A DNA stretch of 60,469 bases from Desulfobacteraceae bacterium (GTDB lineage Bacteria > Desulfobacterota > Desulfobacteria > Desulfobacterales > SpSt-501). Below the pieces are notes generated by a model. The model was not told where the DNA came from and searched no databases. It was given only the letters and a program-made list of their open reading frames with translations. The translations under genes and the position numbers were made by a program. The stretch spans positions 1 through 60,469 of the forward strand of contig JBFYWS010000621.1 of the NCBI GenBank assembly GCA_041310935.1, given 5' to 3'. Shown here piece after piece: positions 1 to 60,348 of the stretch (its first letter is position 1; each line of letters begins with the position of its first letter).

Positions 1-121
1 CACGGCGCGGACCTGGCCGTTGCGGGAGCGGTGGAAGCGGGGTGCGGGGATCGGGTCTGCAACGCGCAGTTCTTCGGTTGCTGTGTAGATGTACTCAATG
101 GCGGAATGCTGCATGAAATAC
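1..121. repeat. Terminal direct overlap: nt 1-121 are identical to nt 60349-60469 (circular-assembly signature)
   Basis: Read directly at both ends (cacggcgcggacctggccgttgcggg...gcggaatgctgcatgaaatac). The overlap lies inside an open reading frame. Confidence 0.95.
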
Positions 122-3100
122 GCCGGAAGTCCGTCGTAGACACCTCGATGGTAGCTGACAGCCCAATCCTTGCGAAGTCGTAGACCGCCACGCTCGGCCC
201 CGGTGTCGTAACCAGCACCTTGCGAAAACTCGCGGATGTCGTCTGAATTGACGTTTTTGAAGAATGTATCTGCGCTGACTTCCTCGGAAGAATCAAGCAT
301 CGCGTGGATTCGTTCCGCATCGGACCCGACGCAACTTGTCGCGTACTGGTAGCCTCCATCTCGCCTGACTTTCGCATCAATGTCTGCCCACGTTCTATGG
401 GATGTGGGATACTTGTCGGTTGGGTTCCATGACTGTCGAACCCTCGCCGCCTGCCCGTCGCCGCTCTCCACCGCGGCCTTGACCAACTCGTCGGCGTCGT
501 CGAACCGGCCGCCCCATGTGCCCTCAGCCGCGAACGGCACGGCGCGGGTCTCGTCGGACAGCGTGGCGTCGAACGCCTCGCGGGTTACGCCGCGGGGCTG
601 GGAACCGAGAAGGTCTGACGTGGAGAACTGCACGTTCTGCCTGAAACTCAGGTCTCGCACAGCCCTCGCTCTGTCGTCCGCCTTGTCGGGGTCGTACTTC
701 TCGACCTCGATCCCGTGCCGCTTGAGAATGGCGAACGTCTGCGGACTGGCATCGCTGGGCACCACGGCGCCCGTGAACTCCTGCAACTGAACGACGCGCT
801 GCGGCTTGGCCTCGAAGTATTCCGTCGGCATCGCCTTCAACTCGTCCGTGAACTGCCGAATCTCTTCCCAAGGCATCTGGTCGTAGTCGAAGCCGTATTC
901 CTTCAGCTTGGCTCGTGGCGTGCGGGAGCGCATGGCGTCGATGACGGCGTTCCAGAATGTTTCGCTGTATCCGAATGATTCGGAATTGTTCTCATAGGCG
1001 GACCTGCCACTGTTGGCGATCTCTTGCAGTCTCGCGTTTGCGCCCTGCTTGTCCTCGTCCATCCCAGATTTCAGTTTGCCGCGGTCGGACTGAATCTGCG
1101 CCAGCGTCCGGTACTGCCGGCTACCGATGGCGGCCCGCACGCTCCCGGCCCCGTAGAAAAACCCCTCGCCTTCCTTGGATCGGATGGCCTTGCGCAGTTC
1201 CTTCATCACGTAGTCGAGCGTGTAGGGGGCATACCGCTTGTTCCCGGCGTTCGTGAACCCCTTGAAAATCTTGCGCTCGACGAACGGGCCGAATGTGGCG
1301 TCCACCCAGGACTCGAACTCGGACTTGTGCTCGGCGATGAACGACCGCAGGGCCTCGCGCCCATCAACCTCGTCGGTGTTGCGAAAGACTTGCCCGTACC
1401 GCGTACCGGCGAAGTAGGCGCCCAACCCCAGGTCACGGTACAGGTCTTCAATGCCATGGTCCCTGAACTGTCCCGCCGCCTCAAGATGGCTATGCAGCCC
1501 GTAGAGCACGCTGCGGATGTGGTAGTCTTCCTTGTTGAGCGAGTCGCTTCGCATGTCGCCGTAGGTGGCCTGCACCCATGCCTCAATCGGCTTCCACACG
1601 GCATCAGCGCCCTTCGTCATCAGGTGAGTCGCGGATGGGTAGCGCGGGCTATACTGATCGGCGTTCGCCACGCGCATGCTGCGGTCAACCTTGGGGTCCA
1701 CCAGCTCCGGGCGTCCGATGAGCGTGATTTCACCAAAGCCTTCGTAGGGCGCTTCCGCGTTCGCCACCCCGAGGGAAGGCATGGCGAGCCCGCCCATCTC
1801 TTCGGCGAACGCAAGGTTCTTCGCTGACAGGTTGTGCATGGCGACCAGCGGAGGATTCGCTTCAGTCTCCCCCCGTGCCGCCAGCTTCCTCGGCATCACC
1901 ACGCCCTTAGCGGTCCCGTCATCGTTCGCAACCGTGATGGGCGAAAGCTCGTCCGTCAGGCCGATCTCAACCGTCTCTGAGTCCCCGGCTTTCAGAGTGT
2001 CCATCAGGTAGTCGGGGTTGAACGCGGCGGTCAGCGTATCGCCCCCGAACGCGACCTTCTCCGCGACGGGGACGGTGCGCTCCATCGTGTACTGCGGGCG
2101 ATTGCCGCTGGTCTTGACGACGATTTCCTTGCTGGATACGTCGAGATGAACGGACTCGTTTTTTCCGTACTCCGGATCGCCAGCGACGTAGGGCCTCACG
2201 TCGGCGAGTGCCTGGCCCAGCGCCTTGCGGCTGACGCGCAGCTTTATCTTCTGGCCGGCGGGGTCGGGGATGACCTGGCGGAAGTTGGGGTAGGTGCCCT
2301 CGATCAGTTTGGTGCGCAGCGTGATGTTGCCGTCGGTGATCTCGGCTATGTCGTTGCGAACCTTGATTTCATTGCCGTTGCCATCAACTTCCTTCGCCGT
2401 CGTCGTTCCCACTCTCACCGTCACTGGTCCCGCCCCGTTGCTCTGAAGCAGCAGATTTACGGCCTGCGGGCGCAGGATCATCTGCACGGACTCGCCGCCC
2501 TTGGGAGCCGCAACCGTCCCCGCTGTGGCAACGTGCAGCCGCCTTCCGTCCGTGCCGACGAGCGAGACTGCGCCGTCCTTGGCGACCTCCAACAACACGC
2601 TGTTCAACACGTAGCGGGACTGGTCCGTGCTCTGCGCCGCTTGAACGGCCAGCAGACCAGCCTTGAGCGCCTGGGCTTGGGCACCGCTGAACTTGAAGGT
2701 CTCCGTGGCCTTGCCGATGTTCATGGGGTCGGGGAACTCGTCGGGGGATTCCTCGGCCTCAACCCATGCGTTGCCGCGGGCTTCCCACAGACCATCGGCC
2801 TGCTCAGTGGGGGCGGATACCTCGTTCTCCAGGTCCGTTGTTCGGCCGATACCGCCCTTGGCGTGCATCCTGGTAAGAACCGGCAGGTTGCTGCCCTTCG
2901 GTGCGGCGGCCCGCAGAATGTCCTCGCCCTTGGCGGGCTTGCCCTTCAGTGTGTCGGGTTCCCACGCCTCAACAGCCTTCGGCGTCGTGTCGGGAGCCTT
3001 TGGCGTTTCCTCGATGGCGGACTCGAACATGGCGGCGCGGGCGGTCTTGTCCTCTGCACCTACGCCCTGCACCATGCCGAACGACAACCTGGCGCTGGTC

Positions 3101-6100
3101 CCCGCCTTGGCGGCGTCGGACAGGTATGGCATGAAGTAGGCATCGCGGGCAAGTCCGGTCTCCTGACGCGGCATGACGACCGACACCATGCCCTGCGCTT
3201 GGCGGCCGGCAGAGACTTCCACGTCCAGGGACTCGGAAAACGTCTTGCCGTTGCGGTCCTTGGTGGTCAGCGTCAGCGTGCCGTGCTCGCTGGAAATGCC
3301 CACCACAACGCCTTCACGCACCTTCCCGGCCATCTTCTTGAGCTTGGCGAGCGCCTTGTTGAACGCCTTGCGGTCCACCGTCAGCGTCTCGGCGGTCGCC
3401 TGCGATAGCAGCGGGGCGAAGTCCGGCTTGGCGACATCGGGCAACCTGGCCGTGACGGTCGTGTTGCCATTGGAAAAGCGGACGGCGCCGGGTGTTGTGC
3501 CGGTCTCTTTGACTTCCGGCTGTCCCGCCTCGATGGTCAGGCTCTCGCCGTGCGGGTCGGCCAGTAGCGCGGTCACGGCGGAGGGATTCAGCCCCACGGC
3601 CCAGCCGTCGGGCACAGCAGAGACATCAGCGGATACCGTCGTGGAGACCAGCCGCCTGCCGTCGGATGCCGATACCGCTACTGCACCGTCGTTGACCTTG
3701 GACACCCACACGTTCATCAGGGCGTAGCGTGTTTCGTCGGAAGACGCCGCCGCCTGGGCCGCCTTAAGGGCCTGCATGAACTCTCGGCCATCGGCGAGCT
3801 TCACCGTGACGGGCTTCTCCAGCTTCGCAAAGCCATACGGGAACTCTTCCAGACCTTCCGGCCCCTGCTCGATGATGAGGACGTTTGACCCCGGCAGTCG
3901 GCGGTAGATTCCGTCCGGCAGGTCCACGGGGGCCTGCACCGTGGCGTCCAGGTCGGACGCGCTGGCGACACCATCCTTCACGGCGACCATTCCGAGGATC
4001 GGGAGCGTGTTCTTCGGGTTGGCGACCTTGCCCAGCGCCTCGACGGGGTGCGTTGCGCCCCGGAACGGCGGCTTCCACGCGGTAGCGAAGGCGCGGCCCT
4101 TGTCGGCTGTTGCGCGGGCCTCGGCGTCGAACTTGGCCTGCTCGGCGGCCTTGGCCTTGGCTTCCTTCTCGATCTTCTCGTCGGACGCCTTCTCCGCTGC
4201 TTCGGCCTCGGCGGTCAACCGGGGTATGTCGGCAATCAGGTCGTCGGCCTGCTTCGCGGTCGGCTCGCTGACTTCAGGGACGGGCAGTTCAGCGGCCTTG
4301 TAGGCATCGTGGATGCGGCGGCGGCGTTGCGCCATCATCTGCAACGACTGGTCCAGTCTCGCCGCTTCCCGCAGCCGTTCGATGGTCAGGGGTTTCCCCT
4401 CGCGGGCATCGAAGTCGGCATTCCGAGCGATGTTGGGTGCCAGCGCCTTGACTTCCTCGTCCGTGGCGTCCGGGTACAGTTCGCGGGCCATCGGCTCGGC
4501 GGCGACCTCGGCCTGGGCCTGGAGGGCGTCGGCTGCATCCGTGGTCATCAAGCCGCTCTTGGCGTCACGCTGGGGGCCAAGGATAGCCGCCCGTGCCATG
4601 AGCCTTGAGACTTCCGGGGCCTTCTCGTCGCGGGCGACCGTGGCGTAGCGGGCGCGTTCAAGTTGACGCTTGGCGGGCTGCTCGACCTCGCGCAAGTGGT
4701 TCTCGAAGACGGCCTCGGCCTCTCGCGCCAGTTTGACGAGCCGCTGGTACTCCGTGACCTTGGCCTTGGGGGCGGACTTCTTGATTCGCCCTGATGGGTC
4801 AACGTAGCGGTTCATGCCGACAAATCGTCCGCGTTTCGTAGCCAGCAGGTCGTTTTCCTTGGCGTAGGTAGCGGCTTCGATGCCAGCCTTCTCCATCGCC
4901 ATTCGGAGTGTGGCTGTAACCGTGTCGGCTTCTGTCATGGCCTTCCGCGCCTCCTCGACGCTCGGGATGTCGGAGGGGATGGCGGGGGTCGCCACGGGGG
5001 CGCCCGGCTTCGGCTTGCTGGCTTCGGGCGTGGCCCCGCGGAAAGCGTGCTCGACGGCATCCTTGATGGCGGCGTCACGGCTCGGATAGTTCTGGTACAG
5101 CATCTTCCGCGTCTTGCGGTCGGGCGACGTGTACTCCAGTCCGAACGTGCCGTCGCCTTCGTCGGTGAGCTTGTAGGCCGCGTCGTTCTCCAACTGGTCG
5201 GCTCCGTACTTCGCCATGTTGCGGGCGAACTTCTGCTCAGGAGACCCCTCTGCGGACTTGGCAGCCACCTTCGCCTTCAGGGCTTCCAGCTTGGTCGCCT
5301 TCGGGGCCTCGGCCTTTAGGACTGTCCGTAACTGCTCTGTCAGCAATCCTTCTCGTTCGGTCAGCTTTGCAATTCTGGACTGCTTCTTGTCGTAATCGGC
5401 TGGAGCAGTTCTGGAAGAGTTCAACTCTTCGCGTTGACGGCGCACAGACGCCAAGCGTTCCCGTATCTCGGCTTCGGTAGTGAGTTTCGCATCCGCTACT
5501 GGAACGGGAGACTTTGTGGTCGGCGCCGGGGCCTCGGCGGTGGGGGCTTCCGGCTTCACCCAGTAGTCGTACTGGCTTTGAATCCGGTCGGCGGGCATCT
5601 TCGCCAACTCAGCGGAGAACTCAGCGCGTTTGCGGGCGACGGCCCTGTCAATGTCGGCTTTCAGCGCATCTTCAGTGGGGAAACGCTCGCCGACGGTTGT
5701 ACCCTCTCGGGCCATCATGCGGACCCAGTAGTCACCACGCGGCACAGGAACAAAGCGGGCGCGGTCTTGTGCATCCGCAGCGTCAAGAATGGCCGCGATC
5801 TTCGCTTCCCGCTCGGCGTCCACGGCCTCGACGCCTTTATTGCCCTCGCCCACACGGTCGAACTCGCCCTTGCCGATCAACTCGGCGTCGGGGGAGGCCC
5901 ACTTCACGTCCTTGTCATTCTCTACCTCAACAAGCCACGCTTCCGTAGTTCCGTCTTTGGCGGTCCCTGTTTCCAAGTAGGCGAGGCGTCCGTACACTCG
6001 GATACCTCCAACCTTCGTCTTGGAATATCCGGTGACGTGGTAAACGTCCCGCGTGTCGCCTTCCTTGTTCTCGATGGTGCCCAGTACCGGGTTGTCCTGA

Positions 6101-9100
6101 GAGATGTCGGCCTCGTCCAGCGCCCCGCTCATCCCATCGGGCATGTTGTCGGCGGCAAACTCGACAACCTGTTTCTCGGCGGTGAGTCCCTTGTCCTTGT
6201 CCTGGGCAACGAAGATTTGGCCGCGGGCCTCGTAGTTGGCCTCGATCTCGGCCTGCATTTCCTCGTACCGGCCCACGGCCTTGGCAATGCCGTCCTCGTC
6301 CTGCATGTCGGCAACGGCGTCCCCGATCTTCTCGCCTTCTACGATCATGCGGGTCATGTCCAGCCAAGTCTCGTGGTTCATGCCCTCGGCGTACCGGGCC
6401 AGCGTCTCGAAGGCGTCGTCGCCGTACTTCTGGCGCAGGCGCGTCTCGCGGGAGTTCAGGCGGCCTTGCAGGGCCACGGTCTCGGGGGTGATGGCGGAGC
6501 CGGTCGGGGTCTGGCGGGCGGCGGGGGCAGGTGGCGGGGGGGGCAGGGGGAATGGAGTCGGAACTGTGCCTTCGTCTGGTCTTGGCATCCAATCCTTGCC
6601 TCGATACGCCAGGCGTACAGCGTTGGGAATGTCCTCGCCACGATTTACCGCCCCACGCATCGCCTGTTCATGCGATATGCGCAGTGCCCGTTCATCGGAA
6701 GCCGTTGTCCGTTGTCCATTACGTTCCCGAACGGCCTTCATAGTTTGGACATACTCATGTGGTGTCTGCGCCCATTCTGGCAGTGCTGGCGCCGGGGCCT
6801 CTTCAGCAGGGGCGGCTGGTGCGGCGGCAGCAGGCTCCTTTGCCGCCATGACCGTCTTGAGCGGGTACTTGTCACTGACGTTCTCGCCCTTGGAATTGAC
6901 TACCCGCACAGATTTGTACGGGCCGCTGCCTTTGAGTGTTCCCGCGTCCTGAGCACGCACCTTAGCCGTCTTCCCGTCCTTGGTCTTGGCCTCGATCCAT
7001 AGGTCAGGCAGGCCCCGCCTTGACGGGGGTGGCTTCAGCAGGCCACGGTGAGCCGCTTCGGCCAAGGTTATCGAAACCGCCTTAGCCGTGGCCGATGGTG
7101 TTTGGGGGGCCTCTGGGGGGGACTGTGGCGCTCTAGGAATGGCCGGAGGCGGGGGGGGAGCTACTCTGATACCCCCCGGAGCGCCATTGGGCGGGGTTCT
7201 CGCATCTCTCTGCCCGGCCTCGTAGGCGGCGCGTTCTTCGTAGGAAATGGACATCCCGCCTTCGTGCATCGGGGTGCCCTTGCCAGACTTTCCGGCGTTG
7301 TAGAGTTCTCTGAACCACGGTTCTGCTGATTGGAGTTGGTCATGGCTCAGGTTCCCGCGTGGGCTTGTCATGTCGGACAGCCATTTCTTCCACACCTTCT
7401 TCCCTTCTTTGCCTACCCCGGATAGCTTATACTCTGTCTCTGCCTTCCGGTTGGCTTCATGGCGTGCCTTTTCGCGTTCGTTGTGGGCAGTCATCTCGTC
7501 GAGATAACCAGGAGAACCGGGTCCTGTAGGAGTAACAACGGGAGTCACAGCCGCCTGCCCCTCGCCGCCCGACGCTGGCGGGGGCGTAGCAGGGGCGGTC
7601 TCCGCTTCCGCCCCGCGCCCTTTCGTCTGTCGATAATGGTCTCTCCGCAGGTTGATTGTGGCCAAGTCCCATTCAAGACTTGCGATGGTCTTCTTCAACT
7701 CGGCTTGGTCATCCGCCCATGCCGGATCATCTCCTATCGCCTCAAGTTCATCCTGAGCCCTTTTGAGTGCCGGATACAGTTCCTTGGAACGACGGGTCAC
7801 GTAAGCATCGGCAGATTCGCCTGGAAGAACGCGAGATGCATCGCCCGGCGCTGGCCCCTCGCCGCCATCTTCGCCTCTCTCCCCAAGTCTTTGCTGCAAC
7901 TCCTTCTCGATCTGCGCCAGTTCGTCCTGCTCGGCTTGCGTCAGGTTGAGTGCTCCAGCCGCTTCCGGGCCTTTTTCCGCAGCCGGGACTTCCACGGGCT
8001 TGCTACCGGCTTCTCCCCCACCCGCACCGGCAGCTTCCGCAGATGGGGCGTTGCCGCCAGGAACTCCCGGTACACCTTGGGGTGCTTGTGTTTCAGATAC
8101 GCCGCCTGAGCCAACGACCGGAGCGGTGCCATGTTCGGCCTCCTTGGGTTGAGTAAGTGCAGGCCCCGCGACCGCGCCTGCTTCCGTAGTCGAGGGGGGT
8201 TCCCTCGTAGGCTCAGCGGCCTTCGTTGGTTTGGTTGGCGCGGGTGTTGGAGCCTGCAAATCTGGTGCCGCGATCAGGCCACGCCGGACGCGGGCGGGTA
8301 ACTGGGCGGCTTCTTTGAAGTAGCGGTCCCTAACCGCGGGACTCGCTCGGTCAAGGTTCACGTTCTCAGACCGGGCTATGATCTTCGCTACCTGCTCGAC
8401 TTCGTAGCGGAGTTGCGCGGTGGTGGGCGGGGCGGCGCGTTGCTCCTCGATGCTTGGGCCTTCCTCTGGGATCGAGGCTTTGAGAGCACGTTTCGGCTTC
8501 GCCTTGGCTATATCTGCAACTGGCTTCTGCCTCCTGACAAGAAACTGCCGTCCATCGGGCAGCGTCTCAACCTGAACTCCGTGCCCTGCCAAATACGCGA
8601 CATCTTCGGATGAGATGATACGGTTTGGCGGAAGCGGCAAACCGGGTCCTGACAACCCTTCGTGGAGTTCTGGCCTGATCTCGTCAGCCGTCTTCGTTTC
8701 CGTCTCTATCGCCTTGCGCACGACGGCATCAGCCGTCATTCTGGCGGCAGCGGTCGCCGCTCCCGGCGCTTGCAGTATGAGCATTGGCCCAATGGATTGG
8801 ACGCCAGCCTCAACAACATCCATGGCGCTGTACTTCATTTCTTCTGGCAGGTTGGAGGCATTGATCTGCCCGTCGATGTACTTTGCGGTAAGGCGCGTCG
8901 TTTCCTGAACCGCCTCTTGCAGCACTTCCTCGCCGACCTCTTGCCCCGTCCGTAGTAAAACCATGCCGCCGAGCCTGAGAAGGCTTCGCAAGAAAGTCTG
9001 TTTTGCCACGTCCTTCGCTCTGCGCCCAAGGCCGGGGATGATCTTATCAACCTGCGAGTACTCGATCAGCGCATACGGCAGTCCGGCGTAAGGCGCGAGC

Positions 9101-10005
9101 TTGGCGGCAGTATCGTGCGACACGCCCGAATTACGCATGGCGCGGTATATGGCGCCCGTGCCCTGGCGGAACCAATACGTTGCGCTGCCCACCGTCATCC
9201 CCATCGAGGCCGCTACGGGAACGGTAATCACTTCCTCCGGCAGCAACACCTGCGGGCCAGCCTGTCCGGCCGCTGCGGCAATGCCGGCAAACCCCATACC
9301 ATACAGGGCACCTTCCTTCTTGCCTCTGAGCATCGCCGGGGCCATGCGTACTGCTCCCAGGATGGAGTTCCAAATCCAGTTCTTGCTCTCTTGCGGAGGG
9401 GCAAGTTCAGCCTTGGACCGCAACTTGTCAGCCTTGTCGGGCGGTATCAATCCAGTTGCAGCCTGAAAATCGAGTTCGTCGAGTGCCGCCTGCTGATCGC
9501 CTTGTTGATAGGCTTGCGCCAATTCTTGTATCCAAGGCGGCCGATCATCTGGCGGCTTTGGTGGTTCAGTTTGGGTGGTTGAGGCGGGCGTTGGAGCAAT
9601 GCTAAACGACGGAACCACGTTAGTCTTTTGCGGCATGACGAACGATGCGGGGCCGACTTCGCCAACCGTCTTGCGTGCCGCCTTTGCCGCCTGCTCCCGC
9701 TGCTGAATGACGGGCGTAATGAGCGCCGCCGGCTGACTGACTCCCACGGACTGCGGAGTCGTGGGGGCGGATACATCCACGCTTCTCAGGGCTGCGCTTG
9801 GTGTTGGGACAACAGGCGGAGGCTTGGGCGTCATCTGCAACTCGGCATCGCTGAGCTGACGGACTGGCTCAACAGCCGGGGCCGATTCAACTGCCGGCGA
9901 TTCATCTGCTTCGAGAAGGTAGTCGAACCTTCCGGTCCGCTTGGGACGCTCAGAGGTTGCGGCAGGCGCAGCCTCAGTATCCAGGAGATAACTAAACCTG
10001 CCCAT
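1..10005 (-). CDS. N-terminal 3,335 codons of a giant ORF of about 4,893 aa (candidate polyvalent virion/ejected protein). It leaves the left edge and continues at 60348 through the circular junction.
   Basis: ATG at 10005-10003, with GAGG 9 nt upstream and an in-frame stop at 10021-10023. I read every plus-strand triplet starting at 1, 4, 7... from 1 to 10020 and found no tta, cta or tca. The frame (coordinate mod 3 = 1) matches ORF 55672..60462. The track omits it because no stop lies on this side of the window. Confidence 0.9.
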   Translation of the reverse strand, partial: MGRFSYLLDTEAAPAATSERPKRTGRFDYLLEADESPAVESAPAVEPVRQLSDAELQMTPKPPPVVPTPSAALRSVDVSAPTTPQSVGVSQPAALITPVIQQREQAAKAARKTVGEVGPASFVMPQKTNVVPSFSIAPTPASTTQTEPPKPPDDRPPWIQELAQAYQQGDQQAALDELDFQAATGLIPPDKADKLRSKAELAPPQESKNWIWNSILGAVRMAPAMLRGKKEGALYGMGFAGIAAAAGQAGPQVLLPEEVITVPVAASMGMTVGSATYWFRQGTGAIYRAMRNSGVSHDTAAKLAPYAGLPYALIEYSQVDKIIPGLGRRAKDVAKQTFLRSLLRLGGMVLLRTGQEVGEEVLQEAVQETTRLTAKYIDGQINASNLPEEMKYSAMDVVEAGVQSIGPMLILQAPGAATAAARMTADAVVRKAIETETKTADEIRPELHEGLSGPGLPLPPNRIISSEDVAYLAGHGVQVETLPDGRQFLVRRQKPVADIAKAKPKRALKASIPEEGPSIEEQRAAPPTTAQLRYEVEQVAKIIARSENVNLDRASPAVRDRYFKEAAQLPARVRRGLIAAPDLQAPTPAPTKPTKAAEPTREPPSTTEAGAVAGPALTQPKEAEHGTAPVVGSGGVSETQAPQGVPGVPGGNAPSAEAAGAGGGEAGSKPVEVPAAEKGPEAAGALNLTQAEQDELAQIEKELQQRLGERGEDGGEGPAPGDASRVLPGESADAYVTRRSKELYPALKRAQDELEAIGDDPAWADDQAELKKTIASLEWDLATINLRRDHYRQTKGRGAEAETAPATPPPASGGEGQAAVTPVVTPTGPGSPGYLDEMTAHNEREKARHEANRKAETEYKLSGVGKEGKKVWKKWLSDMTSPRGNLSHDQLQSAEPWFRELYNAGKSGKGTPMHEGGMSISYEERAAYEAGQRDARTPPNGAPGGIRVAPPPPPAIPRAPQSPPEAPQTPSATAKAVSITLAEAAHRGLLKPPPSRRGLPDLWIEAKTKDGKTAKVRAQDAGTLKGSGPYKSVRVVNSKGENVSDKYPLKTVMAAKEPAAAAPAAPAEEAPAPALPEWAQTPHEYVQTMKAVRERNGQRTTASDERALRISHEQAMRGAVNRGEDIPNAVRLAYRGKDWMPRPDEGTVPTPFPLPPPPPAPAARQTPTGSAITPETVALQGRLNSRETRLRQKYGDDAFETLARYAEGMNHETWLDMTRMIVEGEKIGDAVADMQDEDGIAKAVGRYEEMQAEIEANYEARGQIFVAQDKDKGLTAEKQVVEFAADNMPDGMSGALDEADISQDNPVLGTIENKEGDTRDVYHVTGYSKTKVGGIRVYGRLAYLETGTAKDGTTEAWLVEVENDKDVKWASPDAELIGKGEFDRVGEGNKGVEAVDAEREAKIAAILDAADAQDRARFVPVPRGDYWVRMMAREGTTVGERFPTEDALKADIDRAVARKRAEFSAELAKMPADRIQSQYDYWVKPEAPTAEAPAPTTKSPVPVADAKLTTEAEIRERLASVRRQREELNSSRTAPADYDKKQSRIAKLTEREGLLTEQLRTVLKAEAPKATKLEALKAKVAAKSAEGSPEQKFARNMAKYGADQLENDAAYKLTDEGDGTFGLEYTSPDRKTRKMLYQNYPSRDAAIKDAVEHAFRGATPEASKPKPGAPVATPAIPSDIPSVEEARKAMTEADTVTATLRMAMEKAGIEAATYAKENDLLATKRGRFVGMNRYVDPSGRIKKSAPKAKVTEYQRLVKLAREAEAVFENHLREVEQPAKRQLERARYATVARDEKAPEVSRLMARAAILGPQRDAKSGLMTTDAADALQAQAEVAAEPMARELYPDATDEEVKALAPNIARNADFDAREGKPLTIERLREAARLDQSLQMMAQRRRRIHDAYKAAELPVPEVSEPTAKQADDLIADIPRLTAEAEAAEKASDEKIEKEAKAKAAEQAKFDAEARATADKGRAFATAWKPPFRGATHPVEALGKVANPKNTLPILGMVAVKDGVASASDLDATVQAPVDLPDGIYRRLPGSNVLIIEQGPEGLEEFPYGFAKLEKPVTVKLADGREFMQALKAAQAAASSDETRYALMNVWVSKVNDGAVAVSASDGRRLVSTTVSADVSAVPDGWAVGLNPSAVTALLADPHGESLTIEAGQPEVKETGTTPGAVRFSNGNTTVTARLPDVAKPDFAPLLSQATAETLTVDRKAFNKALAKLKKMAGKVREGVVVGISSEHGTLTLTTKDRNGKTFSESLDVEVSAGRQAQGMVSVVMPRQETGLARDAYFMPYLSDAAKAGTSARLSFGMVQGVGAEDKTARAAMFESAIEETPKAPDTTPKAVEAWEPDTLKGKPAKGEDILRAAAPKGSNLPVLTRMHAKGGIGRTTDLENEVSAPTEQADGLWEARGNAWVEAEESPDEFPDPMNIGKATETFKFSGAQAQALKAGLLAVQAAQSTDQSRYVLNSVLLEVAKDGAVSLVGTDGRRLHVATAGTVAAPKGGESVQMILRPQAVNLLLQSNGAGPVTVRVGTTTAKEVDGNGNEIKVRNDIAEITDGNITLRTKLIEGTYPNFRQVIPDPAGQKIKLRVSRKALGQALADVRPYVAGDPEYGKNESVHLDVSSKEIVVKTSGNRPQYTMERTVPVAEKVAFGGDTLTAAFNPDYLMDTLKAGDSETVEIGLTDELSPITVANDDGTAKGVVMPRKLAARGETEANPPLVAMHNLSAKNLAFAEEMGGLAMPSLGVANAEAPYEGFGEITLIGRPELVDPKVDRSMRVANADQYSPRYPSATHLMTKGADAVWKPIEAWVQATYGDMRSDSLNKEDYHIRSVLYGLHSHLEAAGQFRDHGIEDLYRDLGLGAYFAGTRYGQVFRNTDEVDGREALRSFIAEHKSEFESWVDATFGPFVERKIFKGFTNAGNKRYAPYTLDYVMKELRKAIRSKEGEGFFYGAGSVRAAIGSRQYRTLAQIQSDRGKLKSGMDEDKQGANARLQEIANSGRSAYENNSESFGYSETFWNAVIDAMRSRTPRAKLKEYGFDYDQMPWEEIRQFTDELKAMPTEYFEAKPQRVVQLQEFTGAVVPSDASPQTFAILKRHGIEVEKYDPDKADDRARAVRDLSFRQNVQFSTSDLLGSQPRGVTREAFDATLSDETRAVPFAAEGTWGGRFDDADELVKAAVESGDGQAARVRQSWNPTDKYPTSHRTWADIDAKVRRDGGYQYATSCVGSDAERIHAMLDSSEEVSADTFFKNVNSDDIREFSQGAGYDTGAERGGLRLRKDWAVSYHRGVYDGLPAYFMQHSAIEYIYTATEELRVADPIPAPRFHRSRNGQVRAV
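1300..1860 (-). other. Conserved module inside the giant ORF (PPLVAMHNLSAKNLAFAEEMGGLAMPSLGV...GFGEITLIGRPELVDP), of a kind recurrent in large phage/plasmid polyvalent proteins. I cannot recall the family name.
   Basis: Hand translation of lines 1681-1860 and recollection of the HN(L/I)S...GG(L)xxPS(I/L)(A/G)(V/I) pattern in polyvalent proteins. The extent is approximate. Confidence 0.3.
1882..2925 (-). other. DnaN (beta sliding clamp)-like module B of the giant ORF (about residues 2361-2708)
   Basis: Hand-translated motifs: SNLPVLTRMHAKGGIGRTTDLENEV, DEFPDP, STDQSRYVLNSVLLEVAKDGAVSLVGTDGRRLHVA, RTKLIEGTYPNFRQVIP, AAFNPDYLMDTLK, GVVMPRKL. They match the DnaN hallmarks TLPIL, ATDGHRLA, (I/V)(D/E)GxYPxYxxV(I/L)P, FNxxYLxDxL and MPxR(L/I). 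Confidence 0.75.
3079..4053 (-). other. DnaN (beta sliding clamp)-like module A of the giant ORF (about residues 1985-2309)
   Basis: Hand-translated motifs: HPVEALGKVANPKNTLPILGMVAVKDGVASASDLDATVQ, EEFPYG, SSDETRYALMNVWVSKVNDGAVAVSASDGRRLVS, and a third domain (LTVDRKAFNKALAKL...GTLTLTTKD...YFMPYLSDAAK...ARLSF). The domain order matches a three-domain DnaN, but it is more diverged than module B. Confidence 0.65.
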
Positions 10006-20148: not shown

Positions 20149-20915
20149 GGTCGAGGCCGATCCTTTGTGGCGTCGTAGTGCGCCTTGACATCTGCGGCCT
20201 GCATGAGTCCGGTGTGCAGTATGTCCGACATATAACCGTTGAGCGGAGCAGCCAAGTCGATCCATATCCCAAGCCTAGCGTTCTCGCCTTCAGTATAGTT
20301 ATATCTGTCGGTGTCACTGACGTTCAGGACTCCGTTGGTATATATTCTCTTGCCTCCATTAAAGTCATAGACGATGCCGATGTGAATCCATACATTAGAG
20401 GCAAGAACAGCCCCTTGGAGCTGAGGGCTTCCGAACTTATCTGTCATAATCTTCCCAGTTGTTATATCTCGGTAAACGGTCATGCGTTTACCCCCATCAT
20501 CTATTCCGCGATAGAAAAAAACATGATACACGTCCGTTCCGCCCACAATCTTTGTCCAGAACAGGAAAGATGCAGAAGACGAAACTGGGTTCAAATCGTT
20601 AGTAATGGTAATCCAATCGTCAATACCGTCGAACTTGTACGTGCCGGACACAAACAACGGACGGCAGGAGGCATTGGTTTGATAACCGTCGCTTAGGCGG
20701 GATAGGAAATCTTCCGCCGTCCATGTAGGCAATTGCGCCGGATCGCGTGCCCCATTCGGAAACCAAAATCCTTCCAACTCCGTGTTCGTCCAAAATGTGT
20801 ACGGGAGCGTAGCCGCTGCGGTCGTGTGGTAGGTGCTCCCGCTGGCAATGCGATTTTGCGCCTGCGCGGTCCCGGCGGCGAGCGTCAGCAGCAGTATGGC
20901 GAGGGCACGGTTCAT
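20145..20915 (-). CDS. LamG / concanavalin-A-like lectin domain protein with a signal peptide (receptor-binding candidate)
   Basis: MNRALAILLLTLAAGTAQA-Q; YKFDGIDDWITI...FLFWTK...WIHIGIVYD..GGKRIYTNG...LNGYMSDI fits the Laminin_G_3 pattern. Locally lower GC. Confidence 0.65.
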   Translation of the reverse strand: MNRALAILLLTLAAGTAQAQNRIASGSTYHTTAAATLPYTFWTNTELEGFWFPNGARDPAQLPTWTAEDFLSRLSDGYQTNASCRPLFVSGTYKFDGIDDWITITNDLNPVSSSASFLFWTKIVGGTDVYHVFFYRGIDDGGKRMTVYRDITTGKIMTDKFGSPQLQGAVLASNVWIHIGIVYDFNGGKRIYTNGVLNVSDTDRYNYTEGENARLGIWIDLAAPLNGYMSDILHTGLMQAADVKAHYDATKDRPRP

Positions 20916-23548: not shown

Positions 23549-24168
23549 CCCGGTTGTGCCAACAACGATCCATCCATCCGGCCCATTTGCATATCCCGCG
23601 TCCAGTACGCTACCAGTCGGCGGTACTCAGCGGATGCGTCCTTGAACACGTCGGCGTCATAGTACGGCTTCCGCTTGTTGCCGCACAGCCAGACCAAGGC
23701 GGACGCAACGAATGCCTCATGGAATCGGTTCAGCACCCATGCCGGCAGTTCCTTTGTCGGGTTCAACTTCGGCACGAGCGCGGCCTTGACCAGCAATCCG
23801 TCCGTCACGTCGCTGGCGGGATAGGCTGGCAGCGCAAGGTTCCCAGAAGCCGGGTCATAGGAGACGCCATTCAAAGACTGCTCGGTGCCGTCCTCGCTCG
23901 CGGCCACTTCTGCGGCAGTACGGAAAAAAACCTTAATGATCTTGAGGATGTCGGCCTCGCTGGCAGAGACCGTGGCAAGCGTGTACTCCAGTTCGTCCGT
24001 GTCGAGATTGTTTGGTTCGAGGTCTTCGCGCCACAACGTCGTATCAATCAAGAATCGCCGGGTGCCGGCATGGACGGATCGCAGCCGCATGCCCGCAGAC
24101 ACATCGCTCGGAGCGCGAGCCATAACGAACGGAATAAGGTCAGAATACGCTGATAATCCTGCCGCCAT
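23533..24168 (-). CDS. Virion structural protein (possible head-tail adaptor), 211 aa
   Basis: ATG at 24168 after GGGAGGG. Position two genes downstream of the major capsid gene. No family recognised. Confidence 0.4.
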   Translation of the reverse strand: MAAGLSAYSDLIPFVMARAPSDVSAGMRLRSVHAGTRRFLIDTTLWREDLEPNNLDTDELEYTLATVSASEADILKIIKVFFRTAAEVAASEDGTEQSLNGVSYDPASGNLALPAYPASDVTDGLLVKAALVPKLNPTKELPAWVLNRFHEAFVASALVWLCGNKRKPYYDADVFKDASAEYRRLVAYWTRDMQMGRMDGSLLAQPGWSFV

Positions 24169-24246
24169 GATCCCGCCCTCCCGATGAAGAAACGGGGTGT
24201 AGCCGTAGGGCATACACCCCGCTCAGTTTGCCGAGGTTACACGCCG

Positions 24247-24811: not shown

Positions 24812-25732
24812 CTACGCCTCGGCGGCCTTGTAGGCGTAAGCGTTGACGAGACCCTCCGGCTTCACGGCCTTCCAGCCCCACACCATGAGGCCCTGGATGT
24901 ACGTCTCGAAGTTCCCGTTGTCCCACAGCTTCGCCTCATTCATGCGAAGCGTGTAACTGATGGCTTCCTTGTTGCCCGCGAGAATCGCGGTCGGATGGGT
25001 CGCGTCGGCGCCCGTGCCACTCAGGTACGTGTTGACGTAGAACTTGGCCCGATCCACCATGCCAAGGAATCCGGTCCTCAGTACGGAGGTTGCATCGCCC
25101 ATCGCCATGGCGTTCTTCAGCTCGCTGTTGAGCAGCAGATGGCGCATCCACACGGGAATGACCACCCACACGTTCTCGTTGGCGACCTGCTCAGCCATGA
25201 CGGCGGTGATGCGGGTCAGGAACTCCACCACGTTCGAGGTGTTGACGCCGACTCCGGCGCCGGAAGTACCGAGGGCGTACTGTCCGCTGATGACGCCGGC
25301 CGTGGCCCCCTTGTTCGAGGCGTGGGCCGCGTCCACCATGGCCGCGAAGAACGCCTGGTCGATGTACTTCTGGCCGGCTTTCTGCCCGACTTCCTGGTAC
25401 TTCCTCTGGAGGTCCAGATGCGAGAGTTCCTTGTCGACGGCATTCAGCGCGACATTGAAGTAACCGGCCTTGTCGATCAGCAGTTGGGTCGGCGTGAGGT
25501 TGATGCGCTCGACATCGAGCGTCTGGCCCGCCTCATACGCATTGAACGTAACGGTAGGCTCGTTCTCGACCTGCACTTCGTCCCCGACGTTCAGTTCGTC
25601 GAAGTACTTGCTGGTCGTGATGTCCGGCAGAATGGCGGTCTGCCAGTACTTCGCATTCCACACCTTCGAGTACCGCGTCAGGATTGCTGAGGCGGTCTTC
25701 AGGTTGGGAACGCCCTGTGCATACGTAATCAT
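24812..25732 (-). CDS. Major capsid protein (HK97-fold type), 306 aa
   Basis: Position after the scaffold gene, size, strong RBS and composition typical of roughly 300-aa podovirus/Mu-T-like capsid proteins. The fold was not verified. Confidence 0.7.
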   Translation of the reverse strand: MITYAQGVPNLKTASAILTRYSKVWNAKYWQTAILPDITTSKYFDELNVGDEVQVENEPTVTFNAYEAGQTLDVERINLTPTQLLIDKAGYFNVALNAVDKELSHLDLQRKYQEVGQKAGQKYIDQAFFAAMVDAAHASNKGATAGVISGQYALGTSGAGVGVNTSNVVEFLTRITAVMAEQVANENVWVVIPVWMRHLLLNSELKNAMAMGDATSVLRTGFLGMVDRAKFYVNTYLSGTGADATHPTAILAGNKEAISYTLRMNEAKLWDNGNFETYIQGLMVWGWKAVKPEGLVNAYAYKAAEA

Positions 25733-33621: not shown

Positions 33622-33648
33622 CTGGATGAACTATACAGGAGGTGTCCG

Positions 33649-55671: not shown

Positions 55672-58600
55672 CTACGGCCTTGGCCGCCAGTTCTCGTTGC
55701 GGCGCTTGAACTGCTGCCATGCCGTGCGCTGCTCAGGGGTGAGTTGTGCGCTGAACGAGACGCCAAACACGTTGCGCTGTTCGCGCTCGTCGTAGGCTCG
55801 GCCCGTTGTCGCTGACTTCGTGGCGACGAGGCCCTGCCGCTGGGCGTCCTCGTAAGTTGACTTGAAGGCTTCGTTGATGTCGTAGCCGCTCGCACCTGGG
55901 GGGATCGTGCTGACGGACCTCTCGATCATCTCCACCTTCGGAGTGAAGCCGCGGGCACGGCGAGGCTCGATCACGCCGGCAGTCGTCAGCCCCAACTCGC
56001 CAGCCTTCATTACCTGCCCTGCCGGCAACCCTGTGGACGCCGACAGCAAAATGTCCGCCGCACGGCTGGCCTGCTCGTATACACGCCGGGCGTCGACATC
56101 ATCCTTGTTCAGTTCGTTGGCCGCGCCCATTGTGCCTTCCCATGCCGCCCGCACCATGCCGGAGACTAGGGAGCGATCCTCAAACCGCCCACGTTCGGCC
56201 CATGTCGTTATCATTTCCAGCACTCGGCCCGCCACCGGGAAGATGCCCTGCACAAGTTCCGTAGCCCCGCGTATCGCCGTTCGGTTCTCCTTGATCCGGC
56301 GGGATACTTTGGCACTGAATGAACGCACGCGCTCGTCCTCTTCGCCCTCCGGTTCGTCGGGCTTTGCCTTCTTCTTCTTCGACAGAGCCTCCAGAACGGT
56401 TGAGAGAGTGACAAGCGAGGTCACTGTCGAGAGGATGGCGTTGAGCACCGAGGACCACAGATCGGCGGCTGCCGCTTTTGTCTCGCTGCGCACGTCGCCC
56501 TCACGGCCGCGCATGGCCCTGGCGAGGCGCATGGCGGCAAAGCGCAGCCGTGCCGCGAGGATGGTCTGCTGGCCCATCACCGGGAACACCGTCCGAAGCC
56601 ACAGACTTTGTTTCATGCCGGCATACTCAACAGTCGCTTCGCCCTCGGTCGAGGGGTTCTGAGTGTCGGCTATCCCGTCAGCCACGATGGCCGTTGCCTC
56701 CCGCTTCGACAGCCCGGCATCCCGCAGCATGACGTAGAGGATCGCGCTGTTGTCGCGCTCGCCCCGGATAGCCGACTGCTGCATGAGCCACTCCGCAGTC
56801 TGGGTTGTGGTCGTCCTGAGCCGCGCCAGGGCCAAGGTGATCTCATGCTTCGTCTTGCCCGATGAGCGTACAAGCGGCAGGTTCGTCTGCGTCTCGATAG
56901 CCTCCAAGTCCCAGCGCCGGAAGAAGTAACCGTCCTCCATCAGATCGGCAAGCGCCTGGGCGTACTTCGTAGACTGGAGGTTGACGGGCAGGAGGCTACG
57001 GGCTGCAAACTTCGCAGCATACTGAGGATGGTTTCGTACCAGCCACGCCCACACGCTCGAACCGCCACCGAACTTGTTGAGAGCGTACTGCCGCAGCGGG
57101 TTGCCGGCCACGCGGGACATGATGTAACTCGACGCCATCTTGGAGATCGTGCTTTCCTCGGGGACCGTCTTCTGTGACCGCTCCAAGCCAGCGAGGCCCT
57201 GAACCCTCTGCTTCATTTCGGCCACGGGGCGCGTACCGTACTTCCGGGCCACAGCATCGGAGAAATCGGTGTTCTGGGCCATGGCGATCCAGTCGCGCTG
57301 AAGCTCGGCCATCTTCGCAAACCGCCCCATGCGCTCAACGTGATCCATGAACGTCTGGTAGGCGTCCTGAGCGACGACGGGATTGCCGTGCTCCGTCACA
57401 GGTTTCAGTTCCCCTATCTGATCGAGCATGGCCGCCCTGACGCCCATCGCGCCGCCTGTCACGTCCATCACGTCCACCAGCGGCTTGTTCTTGCGGAATA
57501 CCGAAACGTGCCAGTAGTTCGGGCGGTCAGCCACGTCGCGGCCAAAGACTTCCCGCGCCATGTGGTTGATGTCCGGCACCAGTTCATGTACTTGGTCACG
57601 CATGAACCGCCCGAAAGCCTGGTCCTCTGGGGAGAGTTGCGAGAACAGCGTCCGGTACATAGCGGCGGTATTGTCGCGGAGTTCCTCAGAATCGCCTTCC
57701 CCTTTGGGCGTGTAGGCTCGGCGGTCGTCGTAGTTATAGAAGCCACCTTGCCCCTTCAGCATGACCTCCGCGCCGTGCGGGTCCTGATACTGGAGCCAGA
57801 GTCCAAGCAGTTGCATGTCCGTCAGCCATACCTGGCGGCCATCTCCCAAGTCCCGCGGCTTGCGGAGCCGCTGTTTCTCCAGCATATCGAAACTGTGCTG
57901 CTTGATGTAGTTGCGGACGGCCGCTATGCGCGGTACAGCCAAGGTTTCCCCGTCCCGACTCGCCTGGTTCACCTTCCGCGTAAGGTCGGCCAGCACGGAG
58001 TTGCGGCTACCACCTATCTTTTCGGCCAGTTGCGGAAGGGTCATCGCCCGGTCTACCAGGTGACGCTTCAGAAGCCCGCGCTCGGTATGCGCCCCATCGA
58101 GTTCCTCAACCGGCGAGTTCTGCACCTGCTCTGCGGCCAACTGCCCCAAGCCGGAACGCCTTACCTTCTGGCCGTATTCCAGCATCTTCTTCATCCGGCC
58201 GCTTTCATGCAGCACGGCCAGGAAGTCATTGTAGAGGTCGAGGATTTCCGATGCGCTCATATTGCGGATGTCGGGCAGGGTGATCCCATTCCGCACGGTG
58301 GCCTTGGTAGCCGGCAGGGAGTCCCTGACAGCCGCAAAGGCCGCCTGGAAGTTGTTGCCGTGGTTGTCCTGGTAGAGCGCCTTTACCCGCTTCTCTGGCA
58401 GCGCGTAGAGGCGCTGGAGCCGCTTGCCGATGTATGTCCTCACCTGCTGCTGCGCCCGCTCCCTGATAGCGTCCAGCGTGGCATGGGTGTCTCCGCGAAG
58501 AAACCGGGCGACGGCCCTGCGACGGGTTTCCCCGAACATGCCATTGAGCTGCTCACGGATGAAGTCAGGCCGGTCCGCTTCGGGCAGGGCCGCAGCAGCC

Positions 58601-60348
58601 GTTGTCATGGACTCCAGGTAGCGGTGCTGGTCCCCCAGCCAGCGCATGTACGTTCTCTGGCCGCCAGCGCCCTGAGATCGCTCGTAAACCGCCTTGAAGC
58701 TGGCGTCTATGGCGTCGGGCAGAGCGGCGTAGAACTCGCGTTTCCCGCGCTTCTCGGCACCGAGGGCCTCGGCGGCGCTCGTCAGGCCGGCCAGCGTCTT
58801 GGCGGGGCCTTTCGGGGGCTTGTAGCCAAGGTCGGCGCGAGCCTTTTCACGGGCGGTTTGCACCTTGGCGGCAGCGGCGACGATCTTGGCCTTGCGCTTG
58901 GCCTCGGCCCTCTCGATCAGCTTCTTGGCACGGCGGCTGCCGGCCTCGACGGTCTTCTCGGCCTTGGCAGCGGCCTGCTCCTGGGCAAGCGTCTGTCCGA
59001 TTCGCTGGAAGCCGGAAGCGGCCTCTTCCCGCGTCATGCCCATGATCTGCCTGAGCATGGCGTCAATCTCCTCGCGGGGTATCGGCTCAGGGCTAATGCG
59101 GGCAAACCGTATATCCGCCTTGCCCGCGTCGCCCCACTCGGACGGCGGCGGGATGCGGCCCGTGGAGTCGGGGGTCACTTCGGCGGATTTGATCTGGGAG
59201 GGGTCGAGCACAAATAGGTATCTGGTTTTGTCACCGCCGCGTTCTCTGGTGAATGCTCCGTCAAACCCAGCCCGCTTTAACAGTTCTCTGTTTTCCTCTT
59301 GGAGATAGGGATATTTCGCTCGTGCGATGTCTTCCGAAAGCCATTCGACATACTCCTCGCCGCCTTCTGGCAAGCCGAACTGTTTCCTTTGTTCCGCAGT
59401 CTCGCTGCTCTCAGAAGCTATTATGCGAGCAAGCCGCAACCTGTGATCCTTCCGGTCCATGTCGAAGATGTCTTGCGCCCGTGCATACAGACGCATAACC
59501 AACAGTTCGTCTGCTCGTTTTTGACCTGCATTGACGTATCTGTTAAGGAAACTTCTCGCTCCAGCTTCGGTATAGGCGAGCGAAATACCCTTAGTCGTCT
59601 TCGCTGACGATCCAACTTGAGCCTCGTGTGATAGGTCGTATTTAGTCCAATCTGCGAAGGTCGCATGCCACACCGGCCCGACGTTGTACCCCTGCGCCTT
59701 CAGCACGTCCGCCCGCATCTTCTCAAGCTCGGCGTACTCGTCGGTCTTCTTGAACTCGTCCCACGCGGCCTTGATGTCGGCTTCGCTGGTCTTGCCCTGC
59801 GCCCTGAGTGCTTCCATGCGGGAGTCCCATGCGGGCGTCAGCTCGCGGAAGCGGGCGTCATCGGCAGGGGTGGAGGGGGATGGCTTTCCCTTGGCGTAGG
59901 CGGGCAACCGTTCCCCGACTGGCCCCCTGCCCCGATCCATGGCCATCGCCCTACGCTTGGCGTCCAAGATGCGGCGCAAGAAGGCTCGAACCTCGGCGTC
60001 GGACACCGCCAGCTTGGCCCCCAGCCGCCGCATGAGGGCCTTGAACGTCGCCACCAGGGCGTCGAGGAACCGGCGCCAGAGCGGGGCGTTGTGCTCTCCG
60101 TCGCGGGCTGCCTTCGCCGCGAGTTCATGGAAAAACTCCAAGGAACCCGGCTTTACCCCATAGTTGTGCTCGATCTCGTCGCGGATGGCATTCCACTTGC
60201 CGCGGTAGGTCAGCAGGCCCAGGAGTCGCACATCGGCGGCCCCGAACTGGTTGACGACACGGTGGTAGGCTTCCTCGCGGATGTCGCCCCGGAGCTGGCT
60301 CAGGTTGTCGTAGCGGTCGAGGAAGAAGTAGCTGCGCTGGCCGATGGT
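55672..60348 (-). CDS. C-terminal 1,558 codons (plus stop) of the giant ORF of about 4,893 aa
   Basis: Track ORF 55672..60462 starts at an internal Met. The same frame stays open upstream through 60349-60469 (= nt 1-121) and on to the ATG at 10005. Confidence 0.9.
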   Translation of the reverse strand, partial: TIGQRSYFFLDRYDNLSQLRGDIREEAYHRVVNQFGAADVRLLGLLTYRGKWNAIRDEIEHNYGVKPGSLEFFHELAAKAARDGEHNAPLWRRFLDALVATFKALMRRLGAKLAVSDAEVRAFLRRILDAKRRAMAMDRGRGPVGERLPAYAKGKPSPSTPADDARFRELTPAWDSRMEALRAQGKTSEADIKAAWDEFKKTDEYAELEKMRADVLKAQGYNVGPVWHATFADWTKYDLSHEAQVGSSAKTTKGISLAYTEAGARSFLNRYVNAGQKRADELLVMRLYARAQDIFDMDRKDHRLRLARIIASESSETAEQRKQFGLPEGGEEYVEWLSEDIARAKYPYLQEENRELLKRAGFDGAFTRERGGDKTRYLFVLDPSQIKSAEVTPDSTGRIPPPSEWGDAGKADIRFARISPEPIPREEIDAMLRQIMGMTREEAASGFQRIGQTLAQEQAAAKAEKTVEAGSRRAKKLIERAEAKRKAKIVAAAAKVQTAREKARADLGYKPPKGPAKTLAGLTSAAEALGAEKRGKREFYAALPDAIDASFKAVYERSQGAGGQRTYMRWLGDQHRYLESMTTAAAALPEADRPDFIREQLNGMFGETRRRAVARFLRGDTHATLDAIRERAQQQVRTYIGKRLQRLYALPEKRVKALYQDNHGNNFQAAFAAVRDSLPATKATVRNGITLPDIRNMSASEILDLYNDFLAVLHESGRMKKMLEYGQKVRRSGLGQLAAEQVQNSPVEELDGAHTERGLLKRHLVDRAMTLPQLAEKIGGSRNSVLADLTRKVNQASRDGETLAVPRIAAVRNYIKQHSFDMLEKQRLRKPRDLGDGRQVWLTDMQLLGLWLQYQDPHGAEVMLKGQGGFYNYDDRRAYTPKGEGDSEELRDNTAAMYRTLFSQLSPEDQAFGRFMRDQVHELVPDINHMAREVFGRDVADRPNYWHVSVFRKNKPLVDVMDVTGGAMGVRAAMLDQIGELKPVTEHGNPVVAQDAYQTFMDHVERMGRFAKMAELQRDWIAMAQNTDFSDAVARKYGTRPVAEMKQRVQGLAGLERSQKTVPEESTISKMASSYIMSRVAGNPLRQYALNKFGGGSSVWAWLVRNHPQYAAKFAARSLLPVNLQSTKYAQALADLMEDGYFFRRWDLEAIETQTNLPLVRSSGKTKHEITLALARLRTTTTQTAEWLMQQSAIRGERDNSAILYVMLRDAGLSKREATAIVADGIADTQNPSTEGEATVEYAGMKQSLWLRTVFPVMGQQTILAARLRFAAMRLARAMRGREGDVRSETKAAAADLWSSVLNAILSTVTSLVTLSTVLEALSKKKKAKPDEPEGEEDERVRSFSAKVSRRIKENRTAIRGATELVQGIFPVAGRVLEMITTWAERGRFEDRSLVSGMVRAAWEGTMGAANELNKDDVDARRVYEQASRAADILLSASTGLPAGQVMKAGELGLTTAGVIEPRRARGFTPKVEMIERSVSTIPPGASGYDINEAFKSTYEDAQRQGLVATKSATTGRAYDEREQRNVFGVSFSAQLTPEQRTAWQQFKRRNENWRPRP
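59098..59691 (-). other. ART-PolyVal-like (ADP-ribosyltransferase of polyvalent proteins) module in the giant ORF, possibly catalytically altered
   Basis: GPVWHATF...KGISLAYTEAGARSF...LLKRAGFDGAF...RYLFVLDPSQIKSAE...ADIRFARIS resembles the remembered pattern YHGT...G.YFT...GYDGI...EYVVFDPxQIKSA...DIRFS. Here HGT is HAT, and the position I recall as the conserved Glu is Arg. Confidence 0.45.

Follow-up and report, generated by a model that had tools for sequence, protein, structure and literature searches.

Sliding clamps have so far been known as free, loader-dependent rings, and the polyvalent proteins of phages as injected carriers of nucleases, methylases, ADP-ribosyltransferases and polymerases. 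Here we describe a phage gene that combines features of both. The DNA is contig JBFYWS010000621.1 of assembly GCA_041310935.1, filed under Desulfobacteraceae bacterium and analyzed over its full length of 60,469 nucleotides (the window). On its minus strand lies an open reading frame (ORF) for a giant protein of 4,893 amino acids (aa), of which the section 1876-4080 (minus) encodes two homologous beta-clamp (DnaN) modules, termed A and B.

Bacterial DnaN (PF00712/PF02767/PF02768; E. coli structures 2POL and 1MMI) shares with these modules the fold, the domain order and recognizable domains II and III, and the ligand pocket of module B corresponds almost residue for residue to that of Verrucomicrobial DnaN. 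In contrast to DnaN, the window modules have a domain I of only half size, from which alpha2 and its flanking strands are deleted, and they have lost the canonical interface as well as the channel arginines R73 and R80. DnaN is a free homodimer, whereas the window holds two unlike copies in one chain. Stand-alone phage clamps (PHROG 947; BFVD entries of 323-470 aa) have a subgroup with shortened N-terminus, here called short-N, in common with the window. They are encoded by separate, small genes, which lie among early genes where the contexts were readable, whereas the window modules are fused, duplicated and part of a late, virion-associated giant.

With the polyvalent proteins (Iyer et al. 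2017, PMC5512222) the giant shares its very large size, the multidomain architecture, the neighbourhood of virion genes, a PBECR5 domain, a weak ART-PolyVal match and, in a relative, LPD38, as well as the predicted logic of early-acting activities that are delivered with the DNA. It is a large multi-effector protein with family-specific domains, encoded among virion and late genes. Unlike the described cases, it contains clamp modules, and no fusion to MuF, MPTase or portal was detected. The terms clamp, DnaN and PCNA are absent from the main text of PMC5512222, and no relevant paper came up in full-text searches, in line with a sequence-only reading of this DNA that knew of no clamp in polyvalent proteins. 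An engineered head-to-tail tandem of E. coli beta (Sutton lab, PMC3022782) also joins two protomers by a short linker in one polypeptide. That construct is synthetic, with identical full-length protomers and a linker that is proteolyzed in vivo, whereas the window contains unlike and apparently old paralogs with a conserved spacer.

The clamp gp45 of phage T4 serves late transcription. In phage Mu, MuC works with the host beta (PMC12867686). Both are precedents for a DNA-tracking clamp as a recruitment platform for phage gene expression; they use a free clamp put on DNA by a loader, whereas there is no evidence for a transcription partner in the window. No literature was found on a clamp within a polyvalent protein, on a tandem asymmetric clamp or on the strand relocation of module A described below. 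Clamp folds and polyvalent proteins are familiar as separate entities; what appears to be new, as far as this literature search goes, is that they are combined, that the tandem is asymmetric and that the strand is relocated.

Results and Discussion

A PDB sequence search with aa 1976-2712 of the giant gave 56 matches at E <= 1, almost all of them beta sliding clamps. Module A (~aa 1976-2329; 3019..4080, minus strand) matched Caulobacter beta with phmmer at E 1.3e-11 and module B (~aa 2347-2710; 1876..2967, minus strand) reached E 2e-12, both over DnaN domains II-III. In Pfam, module B lies above the cut-off of 27 bits for DNA_pol3_beta_3 (PF02768; E 1.7e-11, 44.4 bits) and for DNA_pol3_beta_2 (PF02767; E 6.4e-8, 33.3 bits), and PHROG 947, "DNA polymerase processivity factor", was matched at E 1.3e-47. 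Module A gave a weak match to PF02767 (E 1.5e-3, 19.3 bits) and none to PF02768; the N-terminal DnaN domain PF00712 was matched by neither module. Module A is counted as DnaN because it aligns with module B at E 8e-23 (29% identity over 336 aa), matches solved clamps at E ~1e-11 and resembles them in structure. Its AlphaFold2 model (alignment of 81 sequences) has a predicted local distance difference test (pLDDT) value of 90 and a predicted template modelling score (pTM) of 0.89. In a Foldseek search of this model against solved structures, beta clamps account for 50/50 of the matches listed (query-normalized TM 0.64-0.70, root mean square deviation 7-8 Å). A model of the whole tandem retrieved clamps at E 1e-21 with a TM of ~0.70 normalized to the target.

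Profile matches and structure model thus agree with the sequence-only reading, which had proposed two consecutive DnaN-like modules inside the giant protein. The motifs on which it was based were all found in one minus-strand frame, at about residues 1999-2708 of the giant ORF. In module A these are NTLPILGMV (3985-4011), EEFPYG (3832-3849) and SSDETRYAL (3718-3744), and in module B SNLPVLTRM (2866-2892), DEFPDP (2725-2742), STDQSRYVL (2605-2631), RTKLIEGTYPNFRQVIP (2266-2316) and AAFNPDYLMDTLK (1990-2028).

The modules consist of about 2.5 domains each instead of 3. On the minus strand, module A is composed of an AWKPP lead-in (4066-4080), a shortened domain I' (~3838-4053), domain II (~3391-3837) and domain III (~3019-3390), module B of an AWEPD lead-in (2953-2967), domain I' (~2716-2910), domain II (~2266-2715) and domain III (1876-2265). 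In the tandem model the pLDDT of module B is mostly 70-90, with an average of ~78. Domain I was aligned with canonical DnaN of Verrucomicrobiota and with an E. coli sequence that we take to be the reference DnaN. The numbering of the latter agrees with every residue cited in PMC11139829. Both modules lack the N-terminal strand beta1 and ~33 residues of domain I (E. coli ~61-93, beta4-alpha2-beta5), so the shortened first domain noticed earlier is now defined. One helix and five strands make up domain I' in the AlphaFold2 models; neither module has the full-size N-terminal domain of two beta-alpha-beta-beta-beta halves. The same deletion occurs in a set of free proteins of 329-356 aa, and on the basis of these alignments we assign both modules to a phage-specific short-N clamp family.

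At ~9-15 residues ahead of the first helix, modules A and B carry a conserved [WF]-[KET]-P motif, as do the single modules of the nearest orthologous giants (P0002-P0009; P numbers denote proteins and L numbers loci); in the more remote giants P0010-P0019 no such motif is evident. The lead-in is probably a remnant or a replacement of strand beta1. Between the modules lies a Pro/Lys/Thr-rich spacer (~aa 2330-2346; 2968..3018, minus strand), which is predicted to be disordered: residues ~2331-2345 show pLDDT <50 in the tandem model. The section aa 2336-2365, which overlaps the spacer, is 67-73% identical to P0002 and P0003 and contains invariant residues, and the spacer therefore appears to be conserved and not a free linker. 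Instead of the linker of ~50 aa estimated previously, only ~15-30 aa separate the modules, each of which has its own lead-in.

The two modules also differ in their last domain. Modules of type B, such as module B, have the canonical C-terminus and end in a GVxMPxRL strand. In type A, the MPxR strand precedes helix alpha2 of domain III and the C-terminal strand is absent. The relocated strand of module A, MVSVVMPRQ (3163..3189, minus strand), was located by alignment and is assigned as a strand by DSSP at residues 289-293 of the model. Type A comprises this module and the single modules of P0010, P0014, P0016, P0019, P0039, P0040, P0105, P0127 and P0144. The pattern looks like a strand relocation or a partial circular permutation of the last clamp domain and possibly frees the chain exit in the fusion protein.

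For the pocket that receives clamp-binding motifs (CBMs), the residue list of subsites I and II in PMC11139829 was used. Module B is identical to E. coli in 13 of the 19 listed residues (R152, L155, T172, G174, R176, L177, P242, V247, N320, Y323, V360, M362 and P363). On the minus strand, GTDGRRLH (2533..2556) provides the equivalents of T172/G174/R176/L177 in subsite I, YPNFRQVIP (2266..2292) those of P242/V247, and the C-terminal pocket strand GVVMPRKL (1882..1905) those of V360/M362/P363. M364R, R365K and R246Q are changed in comparison to E. coli; R175, Q246 and L344 are common to module B and Verrucomicrobial DnaN. Judging from this alignment, module B keeps essentially the whole host-type CBM pocket. 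The residues of subsite I are near-invariant across all short-N modules, in giants as well as in stand-alone proteins. Of the two window modules only B has kept the pocket. That of module A is degenerate (T172S, 246P, V247L, N320 changed, MPxR strand relocated) and shows further decay in module A of P0002 and of P0003. The tandem would be a natural asymmetric clamp in which one cleft is live and the other dead, an arrangement previously attempted by engineering. No clamp-binding motifs were found within the giant protein itself, with about one or fewer expected by chance.

To describe the distribution of the modules, 1.84 billion cluster representatives (50% identity clusters) were searched exhaustively with HMMER, which gave 5,585 matches. 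Among the best 150 of these, 22 are proteins of 1,270-5,478 aa, most of them with one clamp module. The full tandem, for which the sequence-only reading had suggested a search in other giant ORFs, is present in P0002 and P0003, which share ~71-72% identity with the window, as well as in the fragment P0006 and the more distant P0137; within these best 150 matches, tandems appear to be confined to this lineage. Clamp modules occur in at least 22 giant cluster representatives from at least two phage lineages. P0005, P0007 and P0008 have flanking regions in common with the window protein and carry a single type-B module. Other giants share only the clamp module with it; one of them, P0019, also contains LPD38. 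Between the window and P0002/P0003 modules A and B are 63-85% identical, which equals or exceeds the identity of the upstream flank and of the region past aa 3131 and is comparable to that of the PBECR5 stretch. In a neighbour-joining tree (calculated without support values) the A modules form one clade and the B modules another. Because of this separation the tandem appears to be an old pairing of paralogs and not a recent duplication. In P0004 (5,194 aa) the first module (residues 2629-2821, ~193 aa) stops after domain II, with a complete module B behind it; it is a natural intermediate of the tandem or a state of its decay.

Stand-alone short-N proteins of 329-356 aa were found as well (P0011, P0012, P0013, P0018, P0089 and others). 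Where the contexts were readable, their genes are not located beside polymerase genes, which hints at a role of the family in early host engagement rather than in classical processivity. Free short-N clamp genes were seen amid many small early-type ORFs at L099 (10001-10990), L096 (4705-5775) and L090 (219-1214), one of them next to RadC.

The giants were recovered only by the exhaustive search of representatives. A word-index protein search returned one DnaN with the 737-aa region and only canonical DnaN, no giants, with the module alignment. Scans of IMG/VR gave nothing at first and then one stand-alone gene. In a metagenome scan the back-translated patterns matched the universal DnaN motif, mostly with ordinary dnaN match lengths; L008, the sole locus inspected, carried a giant. 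The genome scan yielded weak matches in metagenome-assembled genomes of Opitutus and Luteolibacter, no giant ORF at the match in the two loci inspected (L001 and L003) and no identified prophage copy. With tblastn, 50,697 GenBank phage records gave only stand-alone clamp-sized matches (<300 residues aligned) and no tandem, the annotated ones being pol III beta or clamp genes; matches in the PLSDB plasmids were likewise clamp-sized only and lay under dnaN/pol III beta genes where annotated. A tandem asymmetric clamp is also absent from the best 50 fold matches in BFVD. Among cellular proteins, the module profile matched DnaN of Verrucomicrobiota and Kiritimatiellota best, and the matches of the genome scan (L001, L003, L006) belong to Opitutus and Luteolibacter. 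Together with R175, Q246 and L344 of module B, the cellular matches suggest a Verrucomicrobial host.

The giant gene lies on the same strand as, and directly downstream of, the virion genes. The minus-strand order is large terminase (TerL, 31239-32762), portal (28871-30958), major head protein (MCP, 24812-25732), several large unannotated genes of tail size, the giant gene and then early-type genes, namely RecT, two exonucleases, a replication-initiator-like protein, two DNA methyltransferases and DUF5131. The same upstream genes are found on the two JGI contigs of P0003. In an unrelated phage with an SU10-type MCP, the giant P0019 with clamp and LPD38 ends the structural block; the same-strand position downstream of the virion genes holds at L088 and L091. 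Neither a polymerase nor a helicase was found among the ORFs scanned, in accordance with the sequence-only reading, and the genome contains no tRNAs.

We propose that A and B together act, within an injected protein, as a docking platform compatible with the host that binds the host's clamp-binding proteins at the incoming genome. To this proposal we give about as much credence as doubt. Since its gene is the last of the virion-gene block, the giant polyvalent protein is probably packaged and injected together with the DNA. Module A most likely serves as structural partner of module B, because its pocket has decayed and yet 72-85% identity is kept among relatives; despite its dead pocket it appears to be under purifying selection. 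Within the one chain, A and B would pair as a pseudo-heterodimer, shaped as a hinged ring or as an open, C-like clamp. Such pairing is favoured by the long-kept adjacency of the unlike paralogs and by the short, conserved spacer. The pocket of module B would dock host DnaN binders such as Pol III alpha/epsilon, the clamp-loader delta wrench, translesion polymerases and MutL/MutS; in E. coli, one cleft per clamp dimer suffices in vivo (PMC3022782). In this way host factors could be brought to the entering genome at the start of infection for early replication or repair, in a phage that apparently has no polymerase of its own. A clamp with host-type pocket in an injected protein would add a strategy to those known for early infection, i.e., to bring or mimic the host replication hub at the site of DNA entry.

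Several findings weigh against this proposal. According to PMC11139829, R73 and R80 contact the DNA and K74, I78 and L82 belong to the dimer interface; all five are removed by the deletion in domain I. In place of I272/L273, module B has P-Y and module A has K-M, and positions 298 and 304 are not acidic, leaving E298 and E304 unconserved. The AlphaFold2 model of the tandem (alignment of 5 sequences) has a pTM of 0.48, too low for confidence in how the modules are placed relative to each other. A deeper alignment of the tandem was precluded because homologs with a single module are all placed on module B by MAFFT, even if only type-A singles are supplied. Furthermore, the orthologous giants P0005, P0007 and P0008 manage with one module, module A of P0004 is devoid of domain III, and no DNA-binding or peptidase domain was detected in the giant by Pfam, PHROG or PDB sequence search. 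Packaging and injection are themselves only probable, and the evidence fits sequestration of host proteins as well as their productive recruitment.

The single-chain ring of six domains suggested by the sequence-only reading is therefore not established, given ~2.5 domains per module, the lost interface residues and the orthologs with a single module. The dimer-interface core (I78/F106/I272/L273 with R103, E298 and E304) is not retained, and neither is the channel set for DNA contact (Q15, R24, R73, R80 and Q149). Position 24 is K in module A, G in module B and K or R in most relatives, and Q149 is replaced by D in the modules and likewise in Verrucomicrobial DnaNs. The short-N family conserves a P-[YF] of its own at positions 272/273, and since this motif co-occurs with the domain I deletion, a remodelled interface is suggested. 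Selection thus seems to have preserved the ligand pocket and relaxed the apparatus of the DNA ring. A truncated clamp family that uncouples pocket conservation from ring features could be of use for the question of a minimal clamp and as a scaffold for clamp-targeting inhibitors.

Conservation of the pocket together with loss of the channel arginines and canonical interface residues would also be expected of a decoy. As a soluble or tethered mimic of DnaN that never encircles DNA, the unit might soak up host clamp-binding proteins and thereby arrest host replication or repair or blunt a clamp-dependent host response. The occurrence of stand-alone short-N homologs in small early-type gene arrays, away from polymerase genes, is in favour of such a function. 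Abundant host proteins could hardly be titrated by the few molecules that are injected, although a mimic that stays tethered could have a local effect. A decoy does not explain why the pocket-dead module A is retained, nor why K or R is kept at the R24 position in most modules, and short phage clamps of 323-345 aa are annotated as ordinary phage clamps in BFVD. We regard a decoy as possible, though on balance doubtful.

Rather unlikely, in our view, is a natural single-chain hinged clamp that is threaded, or pre-threaded, onto the linear DNA end without a loader and, by way of the host-type pocket of module B, hands the genome over to host Pol III, repair or transcription factors. Clamps bind linear DNA without a loader in vitro (PMC11139829), and threading onto a free linear end is physically plausible. 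If true, the tandem would act as an "injected processivity factor", and polyvalent-protein domains would gain a new functional class.

The disordered spacers predicted in the tandem model could alternatively be sites at which a polyprotein precursor is cleaved at its Pro/Lys-rich spacers, releasing a free heterodimeric A + B clamp for use with host Pol III in the ordinary course of phage replication. Processing of polyvalent proteins by peptidases has been proposed (PMC5512222), and the engineered E. coli tandem is cut in its linker in vivo (PMC3022782). The spacer sequence, however, is conserved and not free to vary, no peptidase domain was detected anywhere in the giant, and a gene of the late block would be expressed too late for a replication factor unless the product is delivered by the virion. 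We consider cleavage improbable. Equally improbable is a purely structural exaptation, in which the clamp fold would serve as a ring- or arc-shaped block of the apparatus for ejection or of another internal structure, placed for instance about the end of the DNA or the conduit through which it is ejected, without contacts to host replication proteins. The gene's position in the virion block, the hydrophobic N- and C-terminal segments of the giant and the remodelled interface and channel would suit such a part; a pocket that is near-invariant over dozens of diverged modules is hard to explain without a CBM-type ligand.

The giant ORF extends on the minus strand from the start codon at 10005 through position 1 and continues from 60348 to 55672. 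Its first 3,335 codons (1..10005) start 13 nt past the stop of an upstream 571-aa gene; the last 1,558 codons and the stop occupy 55672..60348. It is read across the window junction because a direct repeat of 121 bp is identical at both ends (1-121 and 60349-60469). For the same reason the window represents a complete phage genome, circular or circularly permuted, of 60,348 bp (62% GC). Continuity at the junction is backed by a colinear alignment of 61% identity to the 5,478-aa metagenomic protein P0003. That an ordinary phage dnaN was merged with its neighbours by mis-assembly or by a fused gene call, for which only the unusual length speaks, can be practically dismissed in view of the uninterrupted frame of 14.7 kb, the same tandem on independent contigs from other samples (P0002, and P0003 on two JGI contigs) and the 22 giant representatives with clamp modules. 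Plus-strand ORFs over the clamp region (2146-3408 and others) were rejected as antisense artefacts of a high-GC gene, all homology being on the minus strand.

Five residues past module B begins a predicted RNase domain of the PBECR5 type (1564..1863, minus strand; PF18814, E 2.9e-15, 57 bits at a cut-off of 25). A weak match to the ADP-ribosyltransferase family ART-PolyVal (59179..59673, minus strand; PF18760, E 4.8e-3) lies below the cut-off and recurs in the precomputed annotation of the ortholog P0003. Over all 4,893 aa no match to an MPTase/zincin, MuF or portal anchor was obtained with Pfam and PHROG, and the four remaining segments of the giant gave no PDB sequence match. Two further domains co-occur with the clamp in the alignable orthologous giants, at 5845-6501 (minus; aa 1169-1387) and 59914-60408 (minus; aa ~3316-3480). 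The former is absent from the P0003 alignment, and the latter contains the invariant pattern RSRNGQVRAVT..FFLDRYDN..EEAGHRL..NHE; neither matched Pfam or PDB, and a profile of the second gave no match either. Hydrophobic, possibly membrane-inserting segments are situated near both ends of the protein, at ~9016-9393 (minus; aa 205-330), where PHROG 28077 of unknown function is matched, and at ~56380-56470 (minus; aa ~4628-4657). These segments are consistent with an ejection-type protein.

Elsewhere in the genome, a DUF5131 protein (phage Gp37/Gp68 family) and the two DNA methyltransferases are encoded at 35992-37554, 32774-34459 and 38989-39699 (all minus). No close DNA relative was found among GenBank phages for the 25-kb stretch 10001-35000. 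The only nucleotide match in this stretch is a section of 195 bp (23393-23587) with 81% identity to DNA of Bordetella phage PHB04 that is annotated as methyltransferase; in the window it is located at the junction of the structural-block ORFs 20912-23548 and 23533-24213.

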